DNA from: Escherichia coli O127:H6 str. E2348/69
Lineage (GTDB): Bacteria > Pseudomonadota > Gammaproteobacteria > Enterobacterales > Enterobacteriaceae
Assembly (NCBI RefSeq): GCF_000026545.1
Contig: NC_011601.1
Length of the DNA: 64,000 bases
Strand: one strand, 5' to 3'
Part shown: piece after piece, positions 7,852-56,792 of the stretch
Numbering within the stretch: position 1 is the first letter of the stretch
Layout: each line of letters opens with the position of its first letter
Position numbers and translations under genes: made by a program
The notes under the pieces: model-generated
What the model was told of the DNA's origin: nothing
The model's database searches: none
What the model saw: the letters and a program-made list of their open reading frames with translations, nothing else

Positions 7852-8607
7852 CGAACCTTTCAGCCACTGCCAGATCCGGCCAAGCGTTTCATAGCCAACG
7901 CGGTCGCTATGCATCAACCAAACCGGAGAAGGGATTGCCCGTTCCCACGGATTAAGCGGCGAGTCGATGGCCAACTGATTCGCCGGGGCTGGTAGCGGAT
8001 TTAACCCTTCCTGCTGAAAAAAGATCATCGCCCGCGGCAGATGTGATGCGGAGGTCACCAGCAGGAAAGGTGCGTCACCAATCGCCTGTTTCACTGCTGC
8101 AGCTTCTTCTTCGGTATCTTTTGGCAAATCCAGGGTGATAATTTGCTCGCGCGGCACGCCCAGCGATTGCGCAACTCTGGCACCTACTTCGGCTGTGCTC
8201 ACCGTATTGGTTTTAGCTACGCCTCCCGTAAAGATCAGTTTTGATCCCGGATTTTCGCGCCATAAGCGAATACCTTCATTCAGGCGTGGCAGACTGTTAT
8301 TGATTAAATTAGAGCTCGGCGCCCACTGCGGGTTCCAAGTATAACCACCTCCGAGCACCACGATATAGTCCACTTTTTGCGAATTATTCCATGTCGGATA
8401 AGTGCTTTCGATGGGACGCAACAGGCGGTCGGCTATCGGTTGCAAACTCAATAACAAGAGCGCCAGCCACCCAATGCTAATAAAAATCTTCCCGGTTTTT
8501 TGAAAACGGCTAAACCACAGCAGCGCCAGGCCAGCGCCAATAATCAACAACATCAGCGGAAGTGGCAGCAACATATTGCCAATCACTTTTTTCAGTGTAA
8601 AAAGCAT
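7828..8607 (-). CDS. elyC: Envelope biogenesis factor ElyC (YcbC), DUF218 membrane protein (259 aa)
   Basis: 259-aa ORF with N-terminal transmembrane segment; conserved position divergent from cmoM. Confidence 0.85.
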   Translation of the reverse strand: MLFTLKKVIGNMLLPLPLMLLIIGAGLALLWFSRFQKTGKIFISIGWLALLLLSLQPIADRLLRPIESTYPTWNNSQKVDYIVVLGGGYTWNPQWAPSSNLINNSLPRLNEGIRLWRENPGSKLIFTGGVAKTNTVSTAEVGARVAQSLGVPREQIITLDLPKDTEEEAAAVKQAIGDAPFLLVTSASHLPRAMIFFQQEGLNPLPAPANQLAIDSPLNPWERAIPSPVWLMHSDRVGYETLGRIWQWLKGSSGEPRQE

Positions 8608-18855: not shown

Positions 18856-19503
18856 ATGAACTATCGTATTATTCCGGTCACCGCATTCTCCCAGAACTGT
18901 TCATTGATCTGGTGTGAACAAACCCGTCTGGCCGCACTGGTCGATCCTGGCGGCGATGCGGAAAAAATCAAACAGGAAGTTGATGCCAGCGGCCTGACAC
19001 TGATGCAGATCCTGCTGACTCATGGTCATCTGGACCACGTTGGCGCAGCGGCGGAACTGGCGCAACATTACGGCGTGCCGGTTTTTGGCCCGGAAAAAGA
19101 AGATGAGTTCTGGCTGCAAGGCTTGCCTGCGCAAAGTCGTATGTTTGGTCTGGAAGAGTGCCAGCCGCTGACGCCAGATCGTTGGCTGAACGAAGGCGAT
19201 ACCATCAGCATAGGGAATGTGACTTTACAGGTGTTACATTGCCCTGGGCATACGCCGGGTCATGTCGTGTTTTTTGATGATCGGGCAAAGCTGCTGATTT
19301 CTGGCGACGTTATTTTCAAAGGTGGAGTAGGGCGCAGTGACTTCCCGCGTGGCGATCATAATCAACTGATTTATTCAATCAAAGATAAATTGCTGCCACT
19401 GGGGGATGACGTGACATTTATTCCGGGTCACGGACCATTATCCACACTTGGTTATGAGCGCCTGCATAATCCCTTCCTGCAAGACGAAATGCCCGTCTGG
19501 TAA
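18856..19503 (+). CDS. ycbL: Metallo-beta-lactamase fold hydrolase YcbL (glyoxalase II-like, 215 aa)
   Basis: 215-aa ORF with THGHLDH metal-binding motif. Confidence 0.85.
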
Positions 19504-19511
19504 AGGTGCAT

Positions 19512-19538
19512 AAAAAAGCCCGCTTTCAAGCGGGCTTC
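19512..19538 (-). terminator. Rho-independent terminator of aspC (shared intergenic hairpin with ycbL)
   Basis: Hairpin agcccgctttcaagcgggct (19517-19536) flanked by an A-run on the + strand (U-run for the minus-strand aspC transcript). Confidence 0.7.
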
Positions 19539-19552
19539 ATCGGTTTTAACGC

Positions 19553-20743
19553 TTACAGCACTGCCACAATCGCTTCGCACAGCGGCGCCATGTTATCTGG
19601 TGTCATCCCGGCCACGTTTACGCGACCAGAAGCAACAGCATATACGCCAAACTCTTCGCGCAGACGCAGCACTTGTTCTTTTGTCAGGCCACTGAAGGAG
19701 AACATGCCGTTCTGTTTGATGATAAAGCTGAAGTCGCGATTTGCGCCTTTTTCCTGCAGCGTATTGACGAACAACTGACGCATACGCTGAATACGCTGGC
19801 GCATATCAGTCAGTTCTTGTTCCCAAATCGCACGTAACGCATCGTTGCTCAGGATGGTGGCAACAACAGAAGCGCCGTGTGCTGGTGGGTTAGAGTAGTT
19901 AGCACGAATCGCCGCTTTCATTTGGCTGAATGCGCGTTCAACAGTTTCACTGTCAGCAGCAACCAGAGTACAAGCGCCAACACGCTCGTTGTACAGGCCA
20001 AAGTTTTTAGAGTAGGAACTGGCAACAATCAGCTCCTTATGCAGAGCCGCGAAAGCGCGCAGTCCTTCAGCATCTTCTTCCAGACCACGGGCAAACCCCT
20101 GGTAAGCGAAGTCAAACAGCGGTAACCAGCCTTTCTCAACGGAGAGTTGTGCCAGTGTCTGCCATTGTTCCAGCGTAGGGTCAATGCCGGTTGGGTTATG
20201 GCAGCAGCCATGGAACAGCACTACGTCGCCAGCCTGAGCTTCGTTCAGGCTGTTAATCAGTGCATCGAAGTCAAGAGTGTGATTTTCCGCATCATAATAA
20301 GCGTATTCACGAACTTCCAGACCTGCAGAGTTAAAGACGCTCTTATGGTTCGGCCAGCTTGGGTTGCTCACCCACACACGCTTAACGCTGGTATTTTTTG
20401 CCAGGAAATCGGCAGCCACGCGTAGTGCGCCAGTGCCACCCGGAGTCTGTGCCGTGCGAGCACGTTTGTCATTGATCAGGGCGCTACCTTTACCAAACAG
20501 CAGTTCCTGAGTGCAGCGACCAAATTCAGGGATGCCGTCAATGCCGAGGTAATTTTTGGTGGTTTCATTTTCGAGCAGATACTGTTCAGCCTTTTTCACG
20601 CTGGTCAGTACCGGGGTTTTACCCGTCTCATCTTTATAGACACCAATCCCGAGGTTAATTTTGCCAGGACGTTCATCGGCTCGAAACAGATCGGCCAGGC
20701 CCAGAATCGGGTCGGCAGGAGCGGCGGTAATGTTCTCAAACAT
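19553..20743 (-). CDS. aspC: Aspartate aminotransferase AspC (396 aa)
   Basis: 396-aa ORF; PLP-lysine motif [14 protein letters not shown]. Confidence 0.97.
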
Positions 20744-20871: not shown

Positions 20872-20902
20872 TAAAAAAACAGGACCAAAGTCCTGTTTTT
20901 TC
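20872..20902 (-). terminator. Rho-independent terminator of ompF
   Basis: Hairpin acaggaccaaagtcctgt (20879-20896) flanked by A-run and T-run, 25 nt downstream of the ompF stop. Confidence 0.8.
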
Positions 20903-20926
20903 GGCATTTAACAAAGGGGTATGCTA

Positions 20927-21997
20927 TTAGAACTGGTAAACGATACCCACAGCAACTGTATCGTCGGAACCTACGCCCAACTTGTTGTCAGAATCGATTT
21001 GGTTAATCGCATAGTCAACATAGGTAGACATGTTTTTGTTGAAGTAGTAGGTTGCGCCCACTTCAATGTAGTTCACCAGATCAACATCACCGATACCTTC
21101 TACATCTTTCGCTTTAGATTTGGTATAGGCGATGGACGGACGCAGACCGAAGTCGAACTGGTATTGCGCAACTAACAGGATATCTTGCGTTTTGTTGGCA
21201 AAGCCACCAGTGATCGGCGTAGCATTACGGGTTTCACCGTAGTTAGCTGCCAGATAGATGTTGTTAGCATCATACTTCAGGCCAGTAGCCCACTGTTCAG
21301 CTTTTTTGCCTTTGCCAAGGGTAGAGTCTTCCTGCAGGTTGGTACGGTCAGCGGCGCCATAAGCACCAACGATACCAAAGCCTTCGAATTCGTAGCTGAC
21401 AGAGCCGCCAACACCGTCGCCGTTAGAACGACGTGCAGTGTCACGCTCGTTTTTACCCAGGTACTGAACAGCGAAATTCAGACCGTCAACCAGACCAAAG
21501 AAGTTGGAGTTACGGTAAGTTGCAACGCCGCCAACACGACCTACGAAGAAGTCATCGCTGTAAGCGGTATCACCACCAAACTCAGGCAGCATATCGGTAT
21601 AACCCAGGGCATCATAAACCACGCCGTAGTTACGACCATAATCGAAAGAACCCGCATCAGCGAATTTCAGACCAGCAAATGCCAGACGCGTTTTATTGCC
21701 ATTCTGAGCATCATCACCTTCAGAGTTATTACCCTGGAAGTTGTATTCCCACTGACCGTAGCCAGTCAGATCGGAGTTAATCTGAGTTTCCCCTTTAAAA
21801 CCAAGACGGGCATAGGTCTTATCGCCATTGCCACCGTAACTGTTTTCACCATTACCCTTGGAGAAATAATGCAAACCGACAGCTTTACCGTATAGATCCA
21901 GTTTGTTGCCATCTTTGTTATAGATTTCCGCAGCGTTTGCGGTACCTGCTACCAACAGAGCAGGGACGACCACTGCCAGAATATTGCGCTTCATCAT
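20927..21997 (-). CDS. ompF: Outer membrane porin OmpF (356-aa precursor; allele appears divergent from K-12)
   Basis: Signal peptide [22 protein letters not shown], mature [10 protein letters not shown]..., C-terminal VAVGIVYQF; 356 aa versus recalled 362 aa for K-12. Confidence 0.95.
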
Positions 21998-22107
21998 TAT
22001 TTATTACCCTCATGGTTTTTTTATGACACCTGCCACTGCCGTCAATAAGTTCTGTCAATAAAAATTTACGGAATTATTGATGAGAGTTTGGTGTCTTTAT
22101 GTGTCTG
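21998..22107 (-). promoter_or_regulatory. ompF 5' leader including the region recalled as the MicF sRNA pairing site
   Basis: Minus-strand sequence upstream of the ATG reads ...AAAAAAACCATGAGGGTAATAAATAATGATGAAGCGC, matching the recalled ompF leader/RBS; leader length (~110 nt) from memory. Confidence 0.5.
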
Positions 22108-22144
22108 CAGGCATCTTTCCATTCAAACTAACGTTTCGCTACCG

Positions 22145-22206
22145 TGAAAGTGCTACAAAGATAAAGATTTGGTTTCAAAAAGAAAAAATATGTGACAAAA
22201 AGTAAA
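22145..22206 (-). promoter_or_regulatory. OmpR binding sites F1-F3 of the ompF promoter
   Basis: Three tandem ~20-bp units on the minus strand (TTTACTTTTTGTCACATATT / TTTTCTTTTTGAAACCAAATC / TTTATCTTTGTAGCACTTTC) about 150-210 bp upstream of the ompF ATG. Confidence 0.6.
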
Positions 22207-22556
22207 AATTAAGGAACTTTGTGAACACCGTCATATTTCCATAGAAGCGTGATGATATTTACAGCAATTTTTATCTATTTATATGATTTCCTTATATTTA
22301 AATTAACTAAACGGAAATTTTGTTTCTGATGGAAACTTTATCGACCAGGCACAAAATCTTCTTTCAGACATCCAGAACGCCAAAAAATTGTATGAAAATT
22401 GTGCTATCAGCTAAGAAAAAACTAATCCGCAATAAGAATGCAGATTATTTTTTTGTGCGTAAATGTTGCAGTGTAATATTCCGTAACAGGATGATCGTTA
22501 TGGCGGGGTTGCAAATAGATTGCTTGACTTAACAAACAGATAACTTGACAGAAAGG

Positions 22557-22599: not shown

Positions 22600-24000
22600 T
22601 TAGAAGCTGGCGTTACGCGGAGTACGTGGGAACGGAATAACATCACGTACGTTTTGCACGCCAGTTACGTAAGCTATCAGGCGTTCAAAACCAAGACCGA
22701 AACCTGAATGCGGAACAGTACCGTAGCGACGCAGATCGCGATACCACCAGTAATCTTCTTTGTTCAGGCCCATTTCCAGCATACGCTCGTCCAGCACGTC
22801 CAGACGTTCTTCACGCTGGGAGCCACCGATGATCTCACCGATGCCCGGAGCCAGAACGTCCATAGCCGCAACGGTTTTACCGTCTTCGTTAAGGCGCATA
22901 TAGAACGCTTTAATATCTTTCGGATAGTTTTTAACCACTACCGGTGCTTTAAAGTGTTCTTCCGCCAGATAACGCTCATGCTCAGAAGAGAGATCTACGC
23001 CCCAGTAAACCGGGTTTTCAAACTTCCTGCCGCAGTTTTCGAGAATGGTCACTGCGTCGGTGTAATCCACCTGCGCAAAATCGGCCTCAATGAAGCGTTC
23101 CAGACGTGAAACGGCATCTTTATCTACGCGTTCAGCGAAGAATTTCATGTCGTCAGCGCGTTCTTCGAGAACCGCTTTGAAGACATATTTCAGCATGGCT
23201 TCAGCCAGACCCGCGATATCGTTCAGGTTAGCAAACGCCACTTCCGGCTCCAGCATCCAGAATTCCGCCAGGTGACGACTGGTGTTGGAGTTTTCAGCAC
23301 GGAAAGTCGGGCCGAAGGTATAAATTTTGGATAATGCGCAAGCGTAGGTTTCGCCGTTCAACTGGCCAGATACGGTCAGGAAAGACTCTTTACCAAAGAA
23401 GTCTTTGTCGAAATCTACTTTGCCCTGATCGTTACGCGGCAGGTTTTCCAGATCCAGCGTAGAAACGCGGAACATTTCGCCAGCCCCTTCGGTATCAGAC
23501 GCAGTAATCAGTGGCGTTGAAACCCAGAAGAATCCCTGCTCGTTAAAGAAGCGATGCAGCGCCTGCGCCAGCGTATGGCGAACGCGCGCGACGGCACCAA
23601 TCAGGTTTGTGCGCGGACGCAGGTGAGCGACTTCACGCAGATACTCAATGCTGTGGCGTTTTGCCGCCATCGGGTAAGTGTCTGGATCTTCAACCCAACC
23701 AGCAACTTCAACCTTGCTGGCCTGAATTTCAAATTGTTGCCCCTGGCCCGGCGACGCCACGACTTTACCCGTCACAATGACCGAGCAACCGGTGGTCAGA
23801 CGCAGGACGTCTTCATTGTAATTGGGCAGAGAATTATTGATGACAGCCTGTACAGGATCAAAGCAGGAACCGTCATAAACGGCGAGGAAGGAGATGCCAG
23901 CTTTTGAATCTCGGCGGGTACGTACCCATCCGCGCACGGTGACTTCGCTGTCAACGGCTACGCGGCCCTGGAGTACGTCGGCTACAGGCACAACGCTCAT
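22600..24000 (-). CDS. asnS: Asparaginyl-tRNA synthetase AsnS (466 aa)
   Basis: ORF-track entry extends to 24045; ATG at 24000 (minus) gives [15 protein letters not shown]-terminus and 466 aa; class II aaRS. Confidence 0.95.
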
Positions 24001-25636: not shown

Positions 25637-28249
25637 ATGACTCAACAGCCACAAGCCAAATACCGTCACGATTATCGTGCGCCGGATTACCAGATTACTG
25701 ATATTGACTTGACCTTTGACCTGGACGCGCAAAAGACGGTCGTTACCGCGGTCAGCCAGGCTGTCCGTCATGGTGCATCAGATGTTCCGCTTCGTCTCAA
25801 CGGCGAAGACCTCAAACTGGTTTCTGTTTATATTAATGATGAGCCGTGGACCGCCTGGAAAGAAGAAGAGGGCGCACTGGTCATCAGTAATTTGCCGGAG
25901 CGTTTTACGCTTAAGATCGTTAATGAAATTAGCCCGGCGGCGAATACTGCGCTGGAAGGGCTTTATCAGTCAGGCGATGCGCTTTGCACCCAGTGTGAAG
26001 CCGAAGGTTTCCGCCATATTACGTATTATCTCGACCGCCCGGATGTGCTGGCGCGTTTTACCACCAAAATTATTGCCGATAAAACCAAATATCCCTTCCT
26101 GCTTTCCAATGGTAACCGCGTTGCGCAAGGTGAACTGGAAAATGGACGTCATTGGGTACAGTGGCAGGACCCGTTCCCGAAACCGTGTTACCTGTTTGCG
26201 TTGGTGGCAGGCGACTTTGATGTGCTGCGCGACACTTTCACCACACGTTCTGGTCGCGAAGTAGCGCTGGAGCTGTACGTCGATCGTGGCAACCTTGATC
26301 GCGCGCCGTGGGCGATGACCTCGCTGAAAAACTCCATGAAATGGGATGAAGAACGCTTCGGCCTGGAGTATGACCTCGACATCTATATGATCGTCGCGGT
26401 GGATTTCTTCAATATGGGCGCAATGGAGAATAAGGGGCTGAATATCTTTAACTCCAAATATGTGCTGGCACGCACCGACACCGCCACCGACAAAGATTAC
26501 CTCGATATTGAACGCGTTATCGGCCATGAATATTTCCATAACTGGACCGGCAACCGTGTCACCTGTCGCGACTGGTTCCAGCTCAGTCTGAAAGAAGGTT
26601 TAACCGTCTTCCGCGATCAGGAATTCAGCTCTGACCTTGGTTCCCGCGCGGTAAACCGTATCAACAACGTGCGCACCATGCGCGGATTGCAGTTTGCGGA
26701 AGACGCCAGCCCGATGGCGCACCCGATCCGCCCGGATATGGTCATTGAGATGAACAACTTCTACACCCTGACCGTTTACGAGAAGGGCGCGGAAGTGATT
26801 CGCATGATCCACACCCTGCTGGGCGAAGAAAACTTCCAGAAAGGGATGCAGCTCTATTTCGAGCGCCATGATGGCAGCGCGGCAACCTGCGACGACTTTG
26901 TTCAGGCGATGGAAGATGCGTCGAATGTCGATCTTTCCCATTTCCGCCGTTGGTACAGCCAGTCCGGCACGCCGGTTGTGACCGTCAAAGACGACTACAA
27001 TCCGGAAACTGAGCAGTACACCCTGACCATCAGCCAGCGCACGCCAGCTACGCCGGATCAGGCAGAAAAACAACCGCTGCATATTCCGTTTGCCATCGAA
27101 CTGTATGACAACGAAGGCAAAGTGATCCCGTTGCAGAAAGGCGGTCATCCGGTGAATTCCGTGCTGAACGTCACCCAGGCGGAACAGACCTTTGTTTTTG
27201 ATAATGTCTACTTCCAGCCGGTGCCTGCGCTGCTGTGCGAATTCTCTGCGCCAGTGAAACTGGAATATAAGTGGAGCGATCAGCAACTGACCTTCCTGAT
27301 GCGTCATGCGCGTAATGATTTCTCTCGCTGGGACGCGGCGCAAAGTTTGCTGGCAACCTACATCAAGCTGAACGTCGCCCGTCATCAGCAAGGGCAGCCG
27401 TTGTCTCTGCCGGTGCATGTGGCTGACGCTTTCCGCGCGGTGCTGCTCGATGAGAAGATTGATCCGGCGCTGGCGGCAGAAATCCTGACGCTGCCTTCCG
27501 TCAATGAAATGGCAGAACTGTTCGATATCATCGACCCGATTGCTATTGCCGAAGTACGCGAAGCACTCACTCGTACTCTGGCGACTGAACTGGCAGATGA
27601 GCTGCTGGCTATTTACAACGCGAATTACCAGAGCGAGTACCGTGTTGAGCATGAAGATATTGCAAAACGCACTCTGCGTAATGCCTGCCTGCGTTTCCTC
27701 GCTTTTGGTGAAACGCATCTGGCTGACGTGCTGGTGAGCAAACAGTTCCACGAAGCGAACAATATGACCGATGCGCTGGCGGCGCTTTCTGCGGCGGTTG
27801 CTGCACAGCTGCCTTGCCGTGACGCGCTGATGCAGGAGTACGACGACAAGTGGCATCAGGATGGTCTGGTGATGGATAAATGGTTTATCCTGCAAGCCAC
27901 CAGCCCGGCGGCGAATGTGCTGGAGACGGTGCGTGGCCTGTTGCAGCATCGCTCATTTACCATGAGCAACCCGAACCGTATTCGTTCGTTGATTGGTGCG
28001 TTTGCGGGCAGCAACCCGGCAGCGTTCCATGCCGAAGATGGCAGCGGTTACCAGTTCCTGGTGGAAATGCTTACCGACCTCAACAGCCGTAACCCGCAGG
28101 TGGCTTCACGCCTGATTGAGCCGCTGATTCGCCTGAAACGTTACGATGCCAAACGTCAGGAGAAAATGCGCGCGGCGCTGGAGCAGTTGAAAGGGCTGGA
28201 AAATCTCTCTGGCGATCTGTACGAGAAGATAACTAAAGCACTGGCTTGA
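25637..28249 (+). CDS. pepN: Aminopeptidase N PepN (870 aa)
   Basis: 870-aa ORF; M1-family zinc motif HEYFHNWTGNRVT...E and GAMEN motif visible. Confidence 0.97.
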   Translation: MTQQPQAKYRHDYRAPDYQITDIDLTFDLDAQKTVVTAVSQAVRHGASDVPLRLNGEDLKLVSVYINDEPWTAWKEEEGALVISNLPERFTLKIVNEISPAANTALEGLYQSGDALCTQCEAEGFRHITYYLDRPDVLARFTTKIIADKTKYPFLLSNGNRVAQGELENGRHWVQWQDPFPKPCYLFALVAGDFDVLRDTFTTRSGREVALELYVDRGNLDRAPWAMTSLKNSMKWDEERFGLEYDLDIYMIVAVDFFNMGAMENKGLNIFNSKYVLARTDTATDKDYLDIERVIGHEYFHNWTGNRVTCRDWFQLSLKEGLTVFRDQEFSSDLGSRAVNRINNVRTMRGLQFAEDASPMAHPIRPDMVIEMNNFYTLTVYEKGAEVIRMIHTLLGEENFQKGMQLYFERHDGSAATCDDFVQAMEDASNVDLSHFRRWYSQSGTPVVTVKDDYNPETEQYTLTISQRTPATPDQAEKQPLHIPFAIELYDNEGKVIPLQKGGHPVNSVLNVTQAEQTFVFDNVYFQPVPALLCEFSAPVKLEYKWSDQQLTFLMRHARNDFSRWDAAQSLLATYIKLNVARHQQGQPLSLPVHVADAFRAVLLDEKIDPALAAEILTLPSVNEMAELFDIIDPIAIAEVREALTRTLATELADELLAIYNANYQSEYRVEHEDIAKRTLRNACLRFLAFGETHLADVLVSKQFHEANNMTDALAALSAAVAAQLPCRDALMQEYDDKWHQDGLVMDKWFILQATSPAANVLETVRGLLQHRSFTMSNPNRIRSLIGAFAGSNPAAFHAEDGSGYQFLVEMLTDLNSRNPQVASRLIEPLIRLKRYDAKRQEKMRAALEQLKGLENLSGDLYEKITKALA

Positions 28250-28261
28250 TACTTTTGAGCC

Positions 28262-28453
28262 AAAATGCCGGATGCGACGCTTGACGCGTCTTATCAGGCC
28301 TACAAGTCCGTTGAAAATGCTGGTTTTGTAGGCTGGATAAGGCGTTCACGCCGCATCCGGCAGCCGTGCCCAAATGCCTGATGCGACGCTTGACGCGTCT
28401 TATCAGGCCTACAATCCGTTGAAACTGCTGGTTTTGTGTGCCACATCCGGCAT
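28262..28453. repeat. REP/BIME-type repetitive extragenic palindromic cluster (two tandem copies of a composite unit)
   Basis: Near-identical blocks gatgcgacgcttgacgcgtcttatcaggcctacaa at 28270-28305 and 28379-28414, each followed by ccgttgaaa(a/-)tgctggttttgt; internal inverted REP ggctggataaggcgttcacgccgcatccggcag. Confidence 0.75.
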
Positions 28454-28454
28454 A

Positions 28455-29222
28455 TTAACCATGACGCCGAATCGGTTGTTCAGAGTGCCCACGCTGCATC
28501 ACCCGTTGCAAAACTTCCGCTTCCAGCTCCGCTAATCGCACCGACCCTAACCGGCGCGGACGGGGGATATCCACCGTCAAATCCAGACCAATTTTTCCCT
28601 CTTCAATTAACAATACCCGGTCAGCCATTGCTACCGCTTCGCTCACATCATGCGTCACCAACAGTACGGTAAAGCCGTGCTCCTGCCAAAGTGACACAAT
28701 CAAATCCTGCATCTCGAGCCGAGTCAGGGCGTCCAGCGCCCCGAGCGGTTCATCAAGCAATAATAAACCCGGTCGATGAATTAACGCTCTTGCCAGCGCC
28801 ACACGCTGTTTCTGCCCGCCAGAAAGTGCGGCAGGCCATTCCCCCGCGCGATTCTCCAGTCCTACCGCAGCCAGCGCCCGACGCGCGGCATCGCGCCACT
28901 GACCTTGAAGGCCTAACCCAACGTTATCAATCACCGATTTCCACGGTAGCAGACGCGCATCCTGAAACATCATTCGCGTGTCTTCCTGAATCTCAGCCAG
29001 CGGTGTGGTGCCGGCTAACACATCGCCTGCGGTTGGCGTTTCCAGACCTGCCAGCAGGCGCAGCAGGGTACTTTTGCCACCACCGCTGCGGCCCACCACC
29101 GCCACAAACTGACCAGCCGGAATATGTAAATCCAGTTGGTTCAGAACGATATTTTCCGCGTAATGCTTGCTTACTGCATTGAGCAACAATGGCGTGCCCT
29201 GGTTCAGACGAGCAGTATTCAT
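28455..29222 (-). CDS. ssuB: Aliphatic sulfonate ABC transporter ATP-binding protein SsuB (255 aa)
   Basis: 255-aa ORF; Walker [10 protein letters not shown], signature [15 protein letters not shown]. Confidence 0.95.
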
Positions 29223-30010
29223 ACCGTGGCCTCCTTCAAATGATAAGCCGGGTTCCAGCGCAACCAGAGGCGCTCTAACAGCTGCGCACTGACGTCAGCA
29301 AGTTTGCCGAGCAGGGCGTAAAGAATAATGGCGACAACCACCACGTCCGTTTGCAAAAACTCCCGCGCATTCATCGCCAGATAACCAATGCCGGAATTGG
29401 CAGAAATGGTTTCGGCAACAATCAACGTCAGCCACATCAGGCCCAATGCAAAACGCACGCCGACCATAATTGAGGGCAGGGCACCAGGCAGGATCACATG
29501 GATAAACAGCGGTATGCCGGATAATCCATAGCTACGCGCCATTTCCACCAGACCGCGATCGATATTACGGATGCCGTGCCAGGTGTTGATATAAATGGGG
29601 AATAGCGTGCCGAGCGCCACCAGAAAGATTTTTGCGGATTCATCAATGCCAAACCACAAAATCACCAGCGGGATCAGCGCCAGATGCGGCACGTTACGCA
29701 ACATCTGAATGGAGGTATCCAGCAGTCGTTCTCCCCAGCGAGATAGCCCGCTAATCAGTCCCAAAATCAACCCCAGCGATCCGCCAATTGAAAAGCCAAT
29801 GAGCGCCCGCCAGGAGCTGATCGCCAGATGCTGCCACAATTCGCCGCTAGCGGAGAGCGTCCAGAACGCCATCACCACTCCTTCCGGTGAGGGCAAAATA
29901 CGCGTTGACAGCCAGCCAACTGAGGAGGCCAGTTGCCACACCGCCACGATGCCCACCGGTAAAAACCAGGGGGCAACGCGCAATAACCACTTTTTCACTG
30001 GCGTTGCCAT
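29219..30010 (-). CDS. ssuC: Aliphatic sulfonate ABC transporter permease SsuC (263 aa)
   Basis: 263-aa polytopic membrane ORF; ATGA overlap with ssuB. Confidence 0.95.
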
Positions 30011-30021
30011 TATCGTATTCC

Positions 30022-31167
30022 TTAGCTTTGCGCGACTTTACGGGGGATAAAATCATTTGCCACCGCTTCGCCTTGCGGATTCAGCGGCTGCGGCTGGGGA
30101 ATTTCCGGGATGGCGACATCCAGATGCGGGAACAGCAACTCGCCAACCCGATACGCTTCTTCCAGATGCGGGTAGCCCGAAAGCACAAAGCTGTCGATGC
30201 CAAGCGCGGCGTATTCGTTGATTCGCGCAGCGACCGTCGGACCATCGCCCACCAGTGCCGTCCCGGCACCGCCGCGCACTAAGCCAACGCCCGCCCATAA
30301 ATTGGGGCTGATCTCCAGATTGTCGCGCTTGCCGTTATGTAGCGCCGCCATTCGCTGTTGTCCTACGGAATCCGTCCGGGCGAATGCGGCTTGTGCTTTG
30401 GCGATAGTCTCATCATCAAGATGCGAGATTAACCGCTCGGCGGCCTGCCACGCTTCGTCGTTGGTTTCACGAACAATCACATGCAGACGAATACCGAAAC
30501 GAATTTTGCGTCCATGCGCGGCAGCTTTCGCCCGCACGTGTTCGATTTTCTCTTTAACCAGTTCCGGCGGTTCGCCCCAGGTGAGGTAGAGATCAACTTG
30601 TTCTGCCGCCAGCTCCTGGGCGACATCTGACGATCCGCCAAAGTAAAGCGGAGGATACGGCTGTTGAATCGGCGGGAAGAGCAGTTTGGCTCCGCGCACA
30701 TGAATATGTTTACCGTTGAAATTGACGGTTTCCCCCAGCAATAAGCGCCGCCAGACCTGGGTAAATTCCGCCGAGGCTTCGTAGCGCTCGCTATGATCAA
30801 GGAACACGCCGTCGCCTGCCAGCTCTTGTGGATCGCTGCCTGTGACCAGATTAAACAACGCACGACCATTCGAGAGACGGTCAAGCGTGGCGGCCTGGCG
30901 GGCGGCAACGGTAGGTGAGGTTACGCTGGGACGCAGGGCGACAAGAAACTTCAGCCGTTGCGTCACCGGGATCATCGACGCGGCAACCAGCCACGCATCT
31001 TCACACGATCGTCCTGTTGGGATCAGCACACCGGTATAACCCAGACGATCCGCCGCTTGCGCAATTTGTTGCAGATAACCGTGATCAACCGGACGTGAAC
31101 CTTCTTCCGTTCCCAGATAATGCCCGTCACCGTGGGTCGGTAAAAACCAGAACATATTCAGACTCAT
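30022..31167 (-). CDS. ssuD: FMNH2-dependent alkanesulfonate monooxygenase SsuD (381 aa)
   Basis: 381-aa ORF starting [19 protein letters not shown] (luciferase-like monooxygenase). Confidence 0.95.
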
Positions 31168-37977: not shown

Positions 37978-39885
37978 ATGTCATTAATCAGTATGCATGG
38001 CGCATGGCTGTCGTTCAGCGACGCGCCGCTTCTCGATAACGCCGAACTGCATATCGAAGATAACGAACGTGTTTGTCTGGTGGGGCGTAACGGTGCAGGC
38101 AAATCAACGTTAATGAAGATCCTCAACCGTGAACAGGGGCTGGATGACGGTCGCATTATTTATGAGCAAGATTTGATTGTAGCTCGTCTGCAACAGGATC
38201 CGCCGCGTAACGTTGAGGGTAGCGTTTATGATTTCGTTGCCGAAGGCATTGAAGAACAAGCGGAATACCTGAAACGCTATCACGATATTTCGCGCCTGGT
38301 GATGAACGACCCGAGCGAGAAAAATCTCAACGAACTGGCGAAGGTTCAGGAACAGCTGGATCACCACAACCTGTGGCAGCTGGAAAACCGCATCAACGAA
38401 GTGCTGGCGCAACTGGGATTAGATCCTAATGTTGCGCTGTCGTCGCTTTCCGGCGGCTGGTTGCGTAAAGCGGCATTAGGACGCGCGCTGGTGAGCAATC
38501 CGCGCGTATTGCTGCTCGACGAACCGACTAACCACCTAGATATTGAAACCATCGACTGGCTGGAAGGGTTCCTCAAAACCTTCAATGGGACAATTATTTT
38601 CATTTCCCACGACCGTTCGTTTATCCGCAATATGGCGACGCGCATTGTTGATCTCGATCGCGGCAAGCTGGTGACCTATCCAGGGAATTACGACCAGTAC
38701 CTGCTGGAAAAAGAAGAAGCCCTGCGCGTGGAAGAATTACAAAATGCCGAGTTCGAGCGCAAACTGGCGCAGGAAGAGGTGTGGATCCGCCAGGGGATCA
38801 AAGCACGTCGTACCCGTAATGAAGGCCGCGTACGCGCCCTGAAAGCAATGCGTCGCGAGCGTGGTGAACGTCGCGAAGTGATGGGTACCGCAAAGATGCA
38901 GGTGGAAGAAGCCAGCCGCTCCGGTAAGATCGTTTTCGAAATGGAGGACGTTTGCTACCAGGTTGACGGTAAGCAACTGGTGAAAGATTTTTCTGCCCAG
39001 GTTCTACGCGGCGACAAAATTGCCCTGATTGGTCCGAATGGGTGCGGCAAAACCACGCTGCTGAAACTAATGCTCGGTCAGCTTCAAGCAGACAGCGGGC
39101 GTATTCATGTTGGCACCAAACTGGAAGTGGCTTATTTCGATCAGCACCGCGCGGAACTGGATCCCGATAAAACGGTGATGGATAACCTTGCCGAAGGTAA
39201 GCAAGAGGTGATGGTTAACGGCAAGCCACGCCACGTATTGGGCTATTTGCAGGACTTCCTGTTCCATCCAAAACGGGCGATGACGCCGGTACGTGCGCTT
39301 TCTGGCGGTGAGCGTAACCGCTTGTTGTTGGCGCGTTTGTTCCTCAAACCAAGCAACTTATTGATTCTTGACGAACCGACCAACGATCTTGATGTCGAAA
39401 CGCTGGAACTGCTGGAAGAACTGATCGACAGCTATCAGGGCACGGTATTGCTGGTTAGCCACGATCGTCAGTTTGTCGATAACACCGTTACAGAATGCTG
39501 GATCTTCGAAGGCGGCGGTAAAATTGGTCGTTATGTCGGCGGTTATCATGATGCCCGTGGTCAGCAAGAACAGTATGTGGCGCTCAAACAGCCTGCGGTG
39601 AAAAAAAGCGAAGAAGCCGCTGCGCCAAAAGCAGAAACTGTAAAACGCAGCAGTAGCAAACTAAGCTATAAATTGCAGCGCGAACTGGAGCAGCTACCGC
39701 AATTGCTTGAAGATCTGGAGGCGAAGCTGGAAGCCCTACAGACGCAGGTGGCGGATGCTTCCTTCTTCAGTCAGCCCCATGAGCAGACACAAAAAGTGCT
39801 CGCCGATATGGCTGCTGCAGAGCAGGAGCTGGAGCAAGCCTTTGAACGCTGGGAGTATCTTGAAGCGTTAAAAAATGGTGGCTGA
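37978..39885 (+). CDS. uup: ABC-F family ATPase Uup (635 aa)
   Basis: 635-aa ORF with two ABC cassettes (GRNGAGKST / LSGGWLRKAALGRAL and GPNGCGKTT / LSGGERNRLLLARL) and C-terminal coiled-coil. Confidence 0.95.
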   Translation: MSLISMHGAWLSFSDAPLLDNAELHIEDNERVCLVGRNGAGKSTLMKILNREQGLDDGRIIYEQDLIVARLQQDPPRNVEGSVYDFVAEGIEEQAEYLKRYHDISRLVMNDPSEKNLNELAKVQEQLDHHNLWQLENRINEVLAQLGLDPNVALSSLSGGWLRKAALGRALVSNPRVLLLDEPTNHLDIETIDWLEGFLKTFNGTIIFISHDRSFIRNMATRIVDLDRGKLVTYPGNYDQYLLEKEEALRVEELQNAEFERKLAQEEVWIRQGIKARRTRNEGRVRALKAMRRERGERREVMGTAKMQVEEASRSGKIVFEMEDVCYQVDGKQLVKDFSAQVLRGDKIALIGPNGCGKTTLLKLMLGQLQADSGRIHVGTKLEVAYFDQHRAELDPDKTVMDNLAEGKQEVMVNGKPRHVLGYLQDFLFHPKRAMTPVRALSGGERNRLLLARLFLKPSNLLILDEPTNDLDVETLELLEELIDSYQGTVLLVSHDRQFVDNTVTECWIFEGGGKIGRYVGGYHDARGQQEQYVALKQPAVKKSEEAAAPKAETVKRSSSKLSYKLQRELEQLPQLLEDLEAKLEALQTQVADASFFSQPHEQTQKVLADMAAAEQELEQAFERWEYLEALKNGG

Positions 39886-55959: not shown

Positions 55960-56373
55960 ATGAAAGAAACCGATATTGCAGGCATTTTAACGTCCACTCA
56001 CACCATTGCGCTGGTGGGGGCAAGCGACAAACCCGATCGTCCCAGCTATCGCGTGATGAAATATCTACTCGACCAGGGGTATCACGTCATTCCTGTTTCG
56101 CCAAAAGTTGCCGGCAAAACACTGCTGGGCCAGCAGGGGTATGGCACGCTGGCAGACGTTCCAGAAAAAGTCGATATGGTCGATGTTTTCCGTAATTCAG
56201 AAGCGGCGTGGGGCGTGGCGCAGGAAGCTATCGCCATTGGCGCGAAAACCCTCTGGATGCAACTGGGGGTGATTAATGAGCAAGCGGCAGTGCTGGCGCG
56301 TGATGCAGGGCTAAACGTGGTGATGGATCGCTGCCCGGCGATTGAGATCCCTCGCCTGGGCCTGGCCAAATAA
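55960..56373 (+). CDS. yccU: CoA-binding domain protein YccU (137 aa)
   Basis: ORF-track entry starts at 55879; ATG at 55960 preceded by GGAGGA gives [30 protein letters not shown] (137 aa). Confidence 0.85.
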
Positions 56374-56412
56374 AAAATCCCCGGAAGGCAAAAACCTTCC
56401 GGGGATTTGTTC
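56374..56412. terminator. Bidirectional rho-independent terminator between convergent yccU and hspQ
   Basis: Hairpin atccccggaaggcaaaaaccttccggggat (56377-56406) with A-run upstream and ttgtt downstream. Confidence 0.75.
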
Positions 56413-56417
56413 AGGGA

Positions 56418-56792
<375 letters not shown>

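Follow-up and report, generated by a model that had tools for sequence, protein, structure and literature searches.

A rare, deeply divergent ompF allele, probably acquired by recombination, in Escherichia coli E2348/69 (O127:H6)

The porin gene ompF of Escherichia coli E2348/69 (O127:H6) encodes a product six residues shorter than that of K-12, with differences in its predicted surface loops, which raises the question of whether these loops were remodelled in place or whether the locus carries a different allele altogether. We consider it fairly probable, taking three statements jointly, that the gene is the functional ompF of this strain in the form of a rare and deeply divergent natural allele, that it originated through recombination, and that its product presents a changed outer face. 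In the window (the whole 64-kb stretch of E2348/69 DNA that was analysed), the ORF listing gives a single long open reading frame of 356 aa spanning 21180-21340 (Table 1). A phmmer search against the PDB aligned its product end to end with K-12 OmpF (3hw9_A, 362 aa; E 3.7e-222), confirming both the identification as OmpF and the length difference that a sequence-only reading of this DNA had put forward. The product scores well above the cut-off of the OmpF equivalog model (NCBIfam NF007446; 762.5 bits, cut-off 583) and under those of the PhoE model (497 bits, cut-off 599) and the OmpC model (468 bits, cut-off 484), and it matches Pfam Porin_1 (PF00267) with an E-value of 5.8e-139. Its neighbours in the window are aspC (19553..20743, minus strand) and asnS (from 22600, minus strand), and K-12, LF82 and every carrier of the allele share this asnS-ompF-aspC arrangement, placing the gene at the orthologous position. 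An N-terminal signal peptide and a C-terminal aromatic Phe, as expected of a protein assembled into the outer membrane, are present, and the protein is catalogued in RefSeq as WP_000977937.1. Two further long ORFs, not taken to be genes, run antisense within ompF on the plus strand, at 21185-21895 (236 aa) and 21433-21780 (115 aa).

Table 1 Coordinates of ompF and associated features in the window
Feature	Position	Strand	Basis
ompF CDS, 356 codons plus stop, intact; signal peptide residues 1-22, C-terminal ...VYQF	20927..21997	-	ORF list, phmmer, NCBIfam, Pfam
ompF 5' UTR and promoter region, host (B2) background, outside the putatively imported block	21998..22400	-	6 differences/~400 nt vs LF82
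Hairpin with A and U runs on either side, just 3' of the ompF stop; likely intrinsic terminator; 3' edge of the divergent block	20873..20902	-	RNA fold
Divergent block, 89 substitutions plus 18-nt indel vs LF82, codon 10 to 10 nt beyond the stop, essentially CDS only	20917..21970	-	mismatch positions, 100-nt profile, 500-nt tiles
Loop L2: A73D, T77N (mature numbering), adjoining the conserved latching residue Glu71	21701..21715	-	residue mapping
Loop L3, constriction loop with PEFGGD; protein identical to K-12, 8-9 synonymous differences	21527..21634	-	alignment, mapping
Loop L5, residues 218-231; variable tip D224 S225 T226 ... K229 (21311-21328) vs K-12 A Q P ... N	21305..21346	-	phmmer, AF2, mapping
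Loop L6, residues 258-268, short form PITGGFANK; 18-nt indel vs K-12; S248G (K-12 mature numbering) at 21206-21208	21194..21226	-	phmmer, AF2, mapping

These scores bear on gene conversion from a paralogue in the same genome (ompC, phoE, ompN or an ompD-like gene) as an explanation of the allele. Conserved stretches are common to the porin paralogues, and one metagenome scaffold fuses an ompD-like 5' end to the E2348 allele, though as an apparent assembly chimera. Nevertheless, the product passes the OmpF equivalog model and fails the PhoE and OmpC cut-offs, and the differences from K-12 ompF, at 95% protein identity over the full length, lie mostly at third codon positions, whereas tracts from paralogues of ~60% identity would bring dense amino-acid changes. 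We therefore regard such conversion as highly improbable.

Relative to K-12 OmpF, the E2348 protein carries 17 substitutions and a 6-residue indel, the two proteins being 95% identical. In the phmmer alignment the indel is a single 6-residue gap opposite K-12 ATPITnkftntSGFANK, the placement of which is ambiguous, as the absent residues may be TNKFTN or NKFTNT; the segment 'NKFTNTS' that the sequence-only reading had named as missing hence corresponds to six absent residues plus the substitution S248G. Codon arithmetic places the 14-residue peptide of the L6 region (A259-D272) at 21182-21223, with the indel junction between 21209 and 21208, and the 12-residue peptide of the L5 region (L221-K232; K-12 counterpart LQEAQPLGNGKK) at 21302-21337, so that both the gap and the L5 differences fall within the 21180-21340 interval in which that reading had located them. 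An AlphaFold2 (AF2) model of E2348 OmpF built from 53 homologues reached a mean pLDDT of 71.5, which is moderate, and was therefore used for secondary structure only. It contains the 16 strands of the barrel, with L3 at residues 122-157 and L5 and L6 at the limits given in Table 1, a loop assignment that agrees with the OmpF topology reportedly described by Cowan et al. in 1992.

Alignment and structural mapping, as that reading had proposed, upheld the length and loop differences and placed the indel and the cluster of non-conservative changes in the extracellular loops L6 and L5. In mature numbering, the L5 substitutions are A202D, Q203S, P204T and N207K, turning EAQPLGN into EDSTLGK, and additional changes occur in L2 (Table 1) and at the top of strand 2 (M38K). 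The proposal that the differences lie in surface loops holds for the indel and for the L2, L5 and L6 changes, but 8 of the 16 substitutions in the mature protein are conservative and fall in strands or a turn (V11L, Y90F, V93A, I178V, Y182F, V257I, F295I and I314A); one more, I10V, lies in the signal peptide. Residues K16, R42, R82, R132, D113, E117, G119, G120, D121, R167, R168 and the trimer latch residue E71 are identical to K-12. Since L3 and every checked constriction residue are the same in both proteins, the further suggestion that the loop changes influence antibiotic permeation finds no support. The predicted outer face of E2348 OmpF is different from that of K-12 (short L6, a re-charged L5 tip, the L2 changes and M38K), and the predicted pore is the same.

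The loop changes are real; however, they are not an isolated feature, as the whole CDS is ~9% divergent from K-12 and LF82 within flanks that are 99-100% identical to LF82. At the DNA level, ompF is 90.9% identical to K-12 and 91.7% to the B2 strain LF82, whereas the 3 kb on each side are 99.0-99.6% identical to LF82, and immediately outside the divergent block LF82 differs at just 6 of ~400 nt upstream and 3 of ~300 nt downstream. Among 500-nt tiles of the window compared with LF82 (median identity 99.4%), none is lower than the two that cover ompF (90.4% and 90.5%). For ompF, dS reaches 0.41 in the comparison with K-12 and 0.38 in that with LF82, whereas aspC and asnS have values of 0.014-0.067; dN/dS for ompF is 0.05-0.06 in both comparisons. 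Approximately 80% of the 97 substitutions relative to K-12 are synonymous and evenly distributed over the barrel, L3 and loops (dS 0.40, 0.40 and 0.56, respectively). Purifying selection acts on the E2348 gene, and region-wide positive selection in the loops was not seen against K-12 (dN/dS 0.08 in loops, 0.05 in the barrel), these being pairwise region averages that are insensitive to selection at few sites. Sharply bounded and mainly synonymous divergence between near-identical flanks argues for gene-sized recombinational replacement, and not for local evolution of the loops. The gene displays the hallmarks of a mosaic, namely a bounded synonymous block, the same allele in different flank haplotypes, and chimeric alleles.

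Fast evolution in place, in which positive selection by host immunity or phages drove loop changes and a deletion in the EPEC lineage, would account for the non-conservative changes and the indel being housed in L2, L5 and L6. We consider it very unlikely all the same: the excess of synonymous substitutions, even over barrel, L3 and loops, contradicts it, dN/dS is as low as 0.06 overall and 0.08 in the loops, the neighbouring genes show no acceleration, other flank haplotypes bear the same allele, and at most of the substituted positions the E2348 residue predominates in other genera.

Several other variable segments were observed in the window. A second and larger recombination block at 28001-31000 covers the 3' end of pepN and ssuB-ssuC-ssuD, with 93.4-95.4% identity to LF82 in 500-nt tiles, and isolated tiles at 96.4-96.6% (8001-8500, 26501-27000, 38501-39000 and 56001-56500) may be small recombination patches. 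Within asnS, ~12 clustered differences at 22996-23788 set E2348 and four same-allele records (L095, L097, L100 and L103) apart from LF82 and the other carriers of the allele; the cluster resembles a small separate recombination patch, and none of the 18 differences between E2348 and LF82 in asnS alters the protein. The aspC-gloC spacer (~19495-19530) is also variable: K-12 has ~170 nt extra relative to E2348 and LF82, and IS621 occupies the same place in strains 02E060 and 165.

The survey of ompF alleles across strains that had been suggested by phylogroup was made over 5426 complete E. coli genomes, 5425 of which contain ompF, and was read against the flanks of the carriers, which are B2-like. 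The E2348 type is rare, its 50-nt L6 junction occurring in 13 of these genomes (0.24%). By DNA identity to the E2348 allele, 7 records are at 100%, 4 at 98% and 2 at 94.5%, with all the rest at or below 91.5%; the seven identical records include three independent assemblies of E2348/69 or O127:H6 (e.g. NZ_LT827011.1, 980927-981997). The exact protein was also found on 459 contigs of a large collection, always named E. coli OmpF, and asnS-ompF-aspC synteny is the same at all nine places shown for it. With an identical CDS in 7 complete-genome records, the junction in 13 genomes and the protein on 459 contigs, a sequencing or assembly artefact has next to no probability. The 98% alleles of FDAARGOS_144 and A21 differ almost exclusively in the first ~180 nt, and those at 94.5% (Z1323HEC0423 and Z1323HEC0067) are clean chimeras, in which LF82-like sequence extends to about nt 645 and the E2348 type takes over from L5 on. 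The coding sequences of carriers are 0-1 nt apart, yet the 3.9 kb upstream differ at 26-44 positions and form at least three haplotypes, all of them B2-like. The same CDS in differing flanks indicates that the allele moved, or that its flanks were overwritten, recently and repeatedly.

Counts with junction-specific 50-mers show that the short L6 is not peculiar to the E2348 type. The long, K-12-type L6 was found in 4913 of the 5426 genomes, and three allele classes have the short form (PI-E/D/T-GGFANK), together ~9% of E. coli genomes: the E50 type (487), the E2348 type with the 13 genomes given above, and the SCU-316 type (7; 356 aa). Outside E. coli, a short L6 (PI-x-GGF/YANK) occurs in E. 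albertii, in a cryptic Escherichia lineage and in two Citrobacter genomes, and it is present in 29 of 53 aligned OmpF sequences, which include many from Citrobacter and three E. coli alleles. A K-12-like long L6 (FTNGxxxxSGFANK) is also found within Citrobacter, where both forms coexist. Of the 17 substituted positions, 12 have the E2348 residue as the commoner state among 48 non-coli homologues. The protein does have six residues fewer than K-12 OmpF, but because the short form is common in relatives, the polarity implied by the term 'deletion', which the sequence-only reading had used, is doubtful and 'indel' is safer; K-12 OmpF may be the form that bears an insertion.

The E50-type gene (357 aa) lies at a dS of 0.28 from K-12 and 0.56 from the E2348 type; as a third deep class it indicates that ompF holds several old lineages. 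Its representative (L012:5001-6074) has a new L4 sequence with one extra residue, DAQEAEFRGQ in L5, PIEGGF as its short L6, and ordinary flanks. Several complete genomes carry a broken ompF, with frameshifts in strains 165 and LS45 and IS1 or IS26 insertions in others, which is the usual route of porin loss (e.g. L011:5001-6081, L013:5001-6072, H54, H55 and H65).

To place the E2348 allele among Escherichia lineages, we compared it with its closest matches. Neither of the two non-coli Escherichia among the matches listed is a donor: E. albertii NBRC 107761 ompF is 87.9% identical at the DNA level (dS 0.70), and that of SCPM-O-B-8794, the nearest relative in this set, is 92.5% identical (dS 0.34), a comparison drawn up without E. 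fergusonii, E. marmotae, E. ruysiae and others. Although labelled 'E. coli', SCPM-O-B-8794 is taken to be a cryptic Escherichia lineage on account of flanks only ~91% identical to E. coli. In a dS tree, the E2348 type falls beside SCPM-O-B-8794, outside both the K-12 and the E50 type; it stands at dS 0.38-0.56 from E. coli alleles, more than the 0.27 that separates the K-12 type from the cryptic lineage. Protein clusters at 90% identity gather all Escherichia OmpF into two clusters, so that species are not separable by them, and a scan of metagenome contigs with an allele-specific 25-mer returned two chance matches on unrelated contigs. The closest separate protein cluster (P0031) was rejected as a relative, since it is the metagenome scaffold mentioned above (L104:1-1695, ENA, 1.7 kb). 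On this scaffold, the 3' end of yddG and an ompD-like signal peptide stand in frame with an ompF body that matches the E2348 allele at ~99%. Misassembly across the N-terminal region that porins conserve is the probable origin, with a real hybrid gene as a less likely possibility. Codon usage sets the E2348 allele apart as well. Calculated with a fixed textbook list of E. coli optimal codons, its Fop is 0.746, compared with 0.80-0.82 for other E. coli alleles and 0.756 for E. albertii, and 33 of its synonymous differences are towards non-optimal codons with 12 in the opposite direction. This low, E. albertii-like codon optimality fits a history in another lineage.

Based on these comparisons, we favour import from an unsampled Escherichia lineage of species-level divergence over an ancient polymorphism within E. 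coli. Homologous recombination would have placed the allele into the conserved asnS-ompF-aspC locus on a tract extending from codon 10 to just beyond the stop. The source would most likely be a divergent Escherichia lineage unsampled here, because at synonymous sites the allele is as distant from all common E. coli alleles as E. coli is from other Escherichia species. The allele may later have moved among B2-like backgrounds on short tracts, recombining within the gene with common alleles.

An alternative that we regard as possible, if rather unlikely, is ancient balanced polymorphism, in which the E2348, K-12 and E50 types would all be old within E. coli (trans-species) and kept by frequency-dependent selection from phages and bacteriocins, with flanks homogenised by recombination up to the gene borders and no interspecies import. 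It would explain why the block edges coincide with the CDS edges, why at least three deep classes occur together, each with ordinary flanks, why inter-class chimeras exist, and why Citrobacter has both long and short L6, and it agrees with the lack of a donor species among the matches listed. The match of block and gene borders and the presence of other deep ompF classes in E. coli would fit such long-term maintenance as well as they fit import. However, the E2348 allele is carried by as few as 0.24% of complete genomes and was seen in B2-like flanks only; its internal diversity of 0-1 nt despite ~1% flank differences points to recent arrival and spread, and not to an old resident; its codon optimality is below that of all other E. 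coli alleles; and its dS to these alleles (0.38-0.56) exceeds that between the K-12 type and another Escherichia lineage (0.27).

A broader proposal, which we offer tentatively and with somewhat more doubt than conviction, would join introgression of the E2348 type from an unsampled Escherichia lineage with the presence of at least three CDS-confined ompF lineages of species-level dS (K-12, E50 and E2348), so that ompF would not be as conserved a porin as commonly held. The introgressed allele would now be spreading in B2 on tracts of 1-2 kb, with its L5 and L6 shuffled into common alleles, under frequency-dependent selection from OmpF-targeting phages, microcins and contact-dependent inhibition (CDI).

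The hairpin that follows the stop codon folds at -20.1 kcal/mol (z -5.5), although a simple terminator scan gave no call there, and control of ompF by OmpR and micF is assumed from K-12. As ompF is intact, its promoter region is of host type and the hairpin terminator is strong, we infer normal expression of a general porin whose diffusion properties resemble those of K-12 OmpF and whose receptor and antigen surfaces are altered.

OmpF is the receptor or entry port of T2-like and K20-type phages, of colicins A, N and the E group, of microcins B17 and C and of some CDI effectors, and it is a main route for beta-lactams and quinolones. The loops in question had been described as contact sites for such ligands, and this is borne out by phage K20, which requires L5, L6 and L7 of OmpF (cited in PMC12032242); some Gp38 phages also use OmpF (PMC12032242). 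CdiA-EC536 and the StbD receptor-binding domain likewise use OmpF, and loop differences prevent docking (PMC5056734; bioRxiv 10.64898/2026.05.07.723447). In natural MccB17-resistant E. coli, ompF changes at Ala95, Thr263 and Ser270 were reported as an association in two strains (PMC10926693), and these sites coincide with L2 and L6 positions that differ in E2348. It is therefore plausible that phages, colicins, microcins, CDI effectors and antibodies that bind OmpF recognise this form differently, and diffusion would be largely unchanged. This combination of altered recognition and retained diffusion may account for the persistence of alleles of this kind.

For E2348/69, the standard EPEC laboratory strain, a K-12-type pore with a different outer face would aid the reading of host-range and bacteriocin tests, and genome surveys should be cautious about scoring ompF alleles of this kind as resistance mutations. 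The natural allele series, with long and short L6, four L5 tips and chimeras, could be used for receptor epitope mapping. The E2348 gene is an ordinary, catalogued natural allele, one more example of a well-recognised phenomenon in a thoroughly known gene; ompF thereby joins the E. coli surface genes exchanged as cassettes, and is no new kind of system.

ompF is usually treated as a more conserved porin than ompC. Our literature search found no description of the E2348 ompF allele or of deep ompF allele classes. Loops of OmpF and OmpC are known to vary among isolates under phage and immunity pressure (PMC5056734 and its refs 30, 31), and diversifying selection on porin loops is attributed to Petersen 2007 and Chen 2006 (as cited in PMC5056734). 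E2348 OmpF shares with K-12 OmpF (P02931; PDB 2OMF, 3HW9) the locus, L3, the constriction residues, the E71 latch, the type of signal peptide and the C-terminal Phe, and differs in an L6 shorter by six residues, the EDSTLGK tip of L5, A73D/T77N in L2 and a DNA identity of 90.9%. The E50 and SCU-316 types have the short L6 in common with E2348, and E50 is also deep and limited to the CDS; unlike E50, however, with which it shares 88.0% DNA identity, the E2348 type is a separate lineage with a K-12-like L4 and is far rarer. The OmpF proteins of E. albertii NBRC 107761 and SCPM-O-B-8794 are also 356 aa long with a short L6, but at the DNA level they match the E2348 allele at only 87.9% and 92.5%, respectively, and they share with it, in various combinations, the residues V11L, Y90F, V93A, Y182F, T77N and I314A.

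A close parallel is ompC, whose allelic replacement by recombination in E. coli is well described (PMC6970295). As in ompC replacement and the modular loops of OmpC (PMC6970295; PMC5056734), exchange of ompF appears to be whole or in parts, with variation focused on loops and with chimeric loops, and selection by phages, CDI and immunity is presumed in both cases. The E2348 tract of ~1.05 kb is short compared with ~22.7 kb in one ompC tract with a stated length (PMC6970295). Unlike the ompC case, the E2348 ompF allele has no link to antibiotic resistance, and its pore-lumen residues are unchanged.
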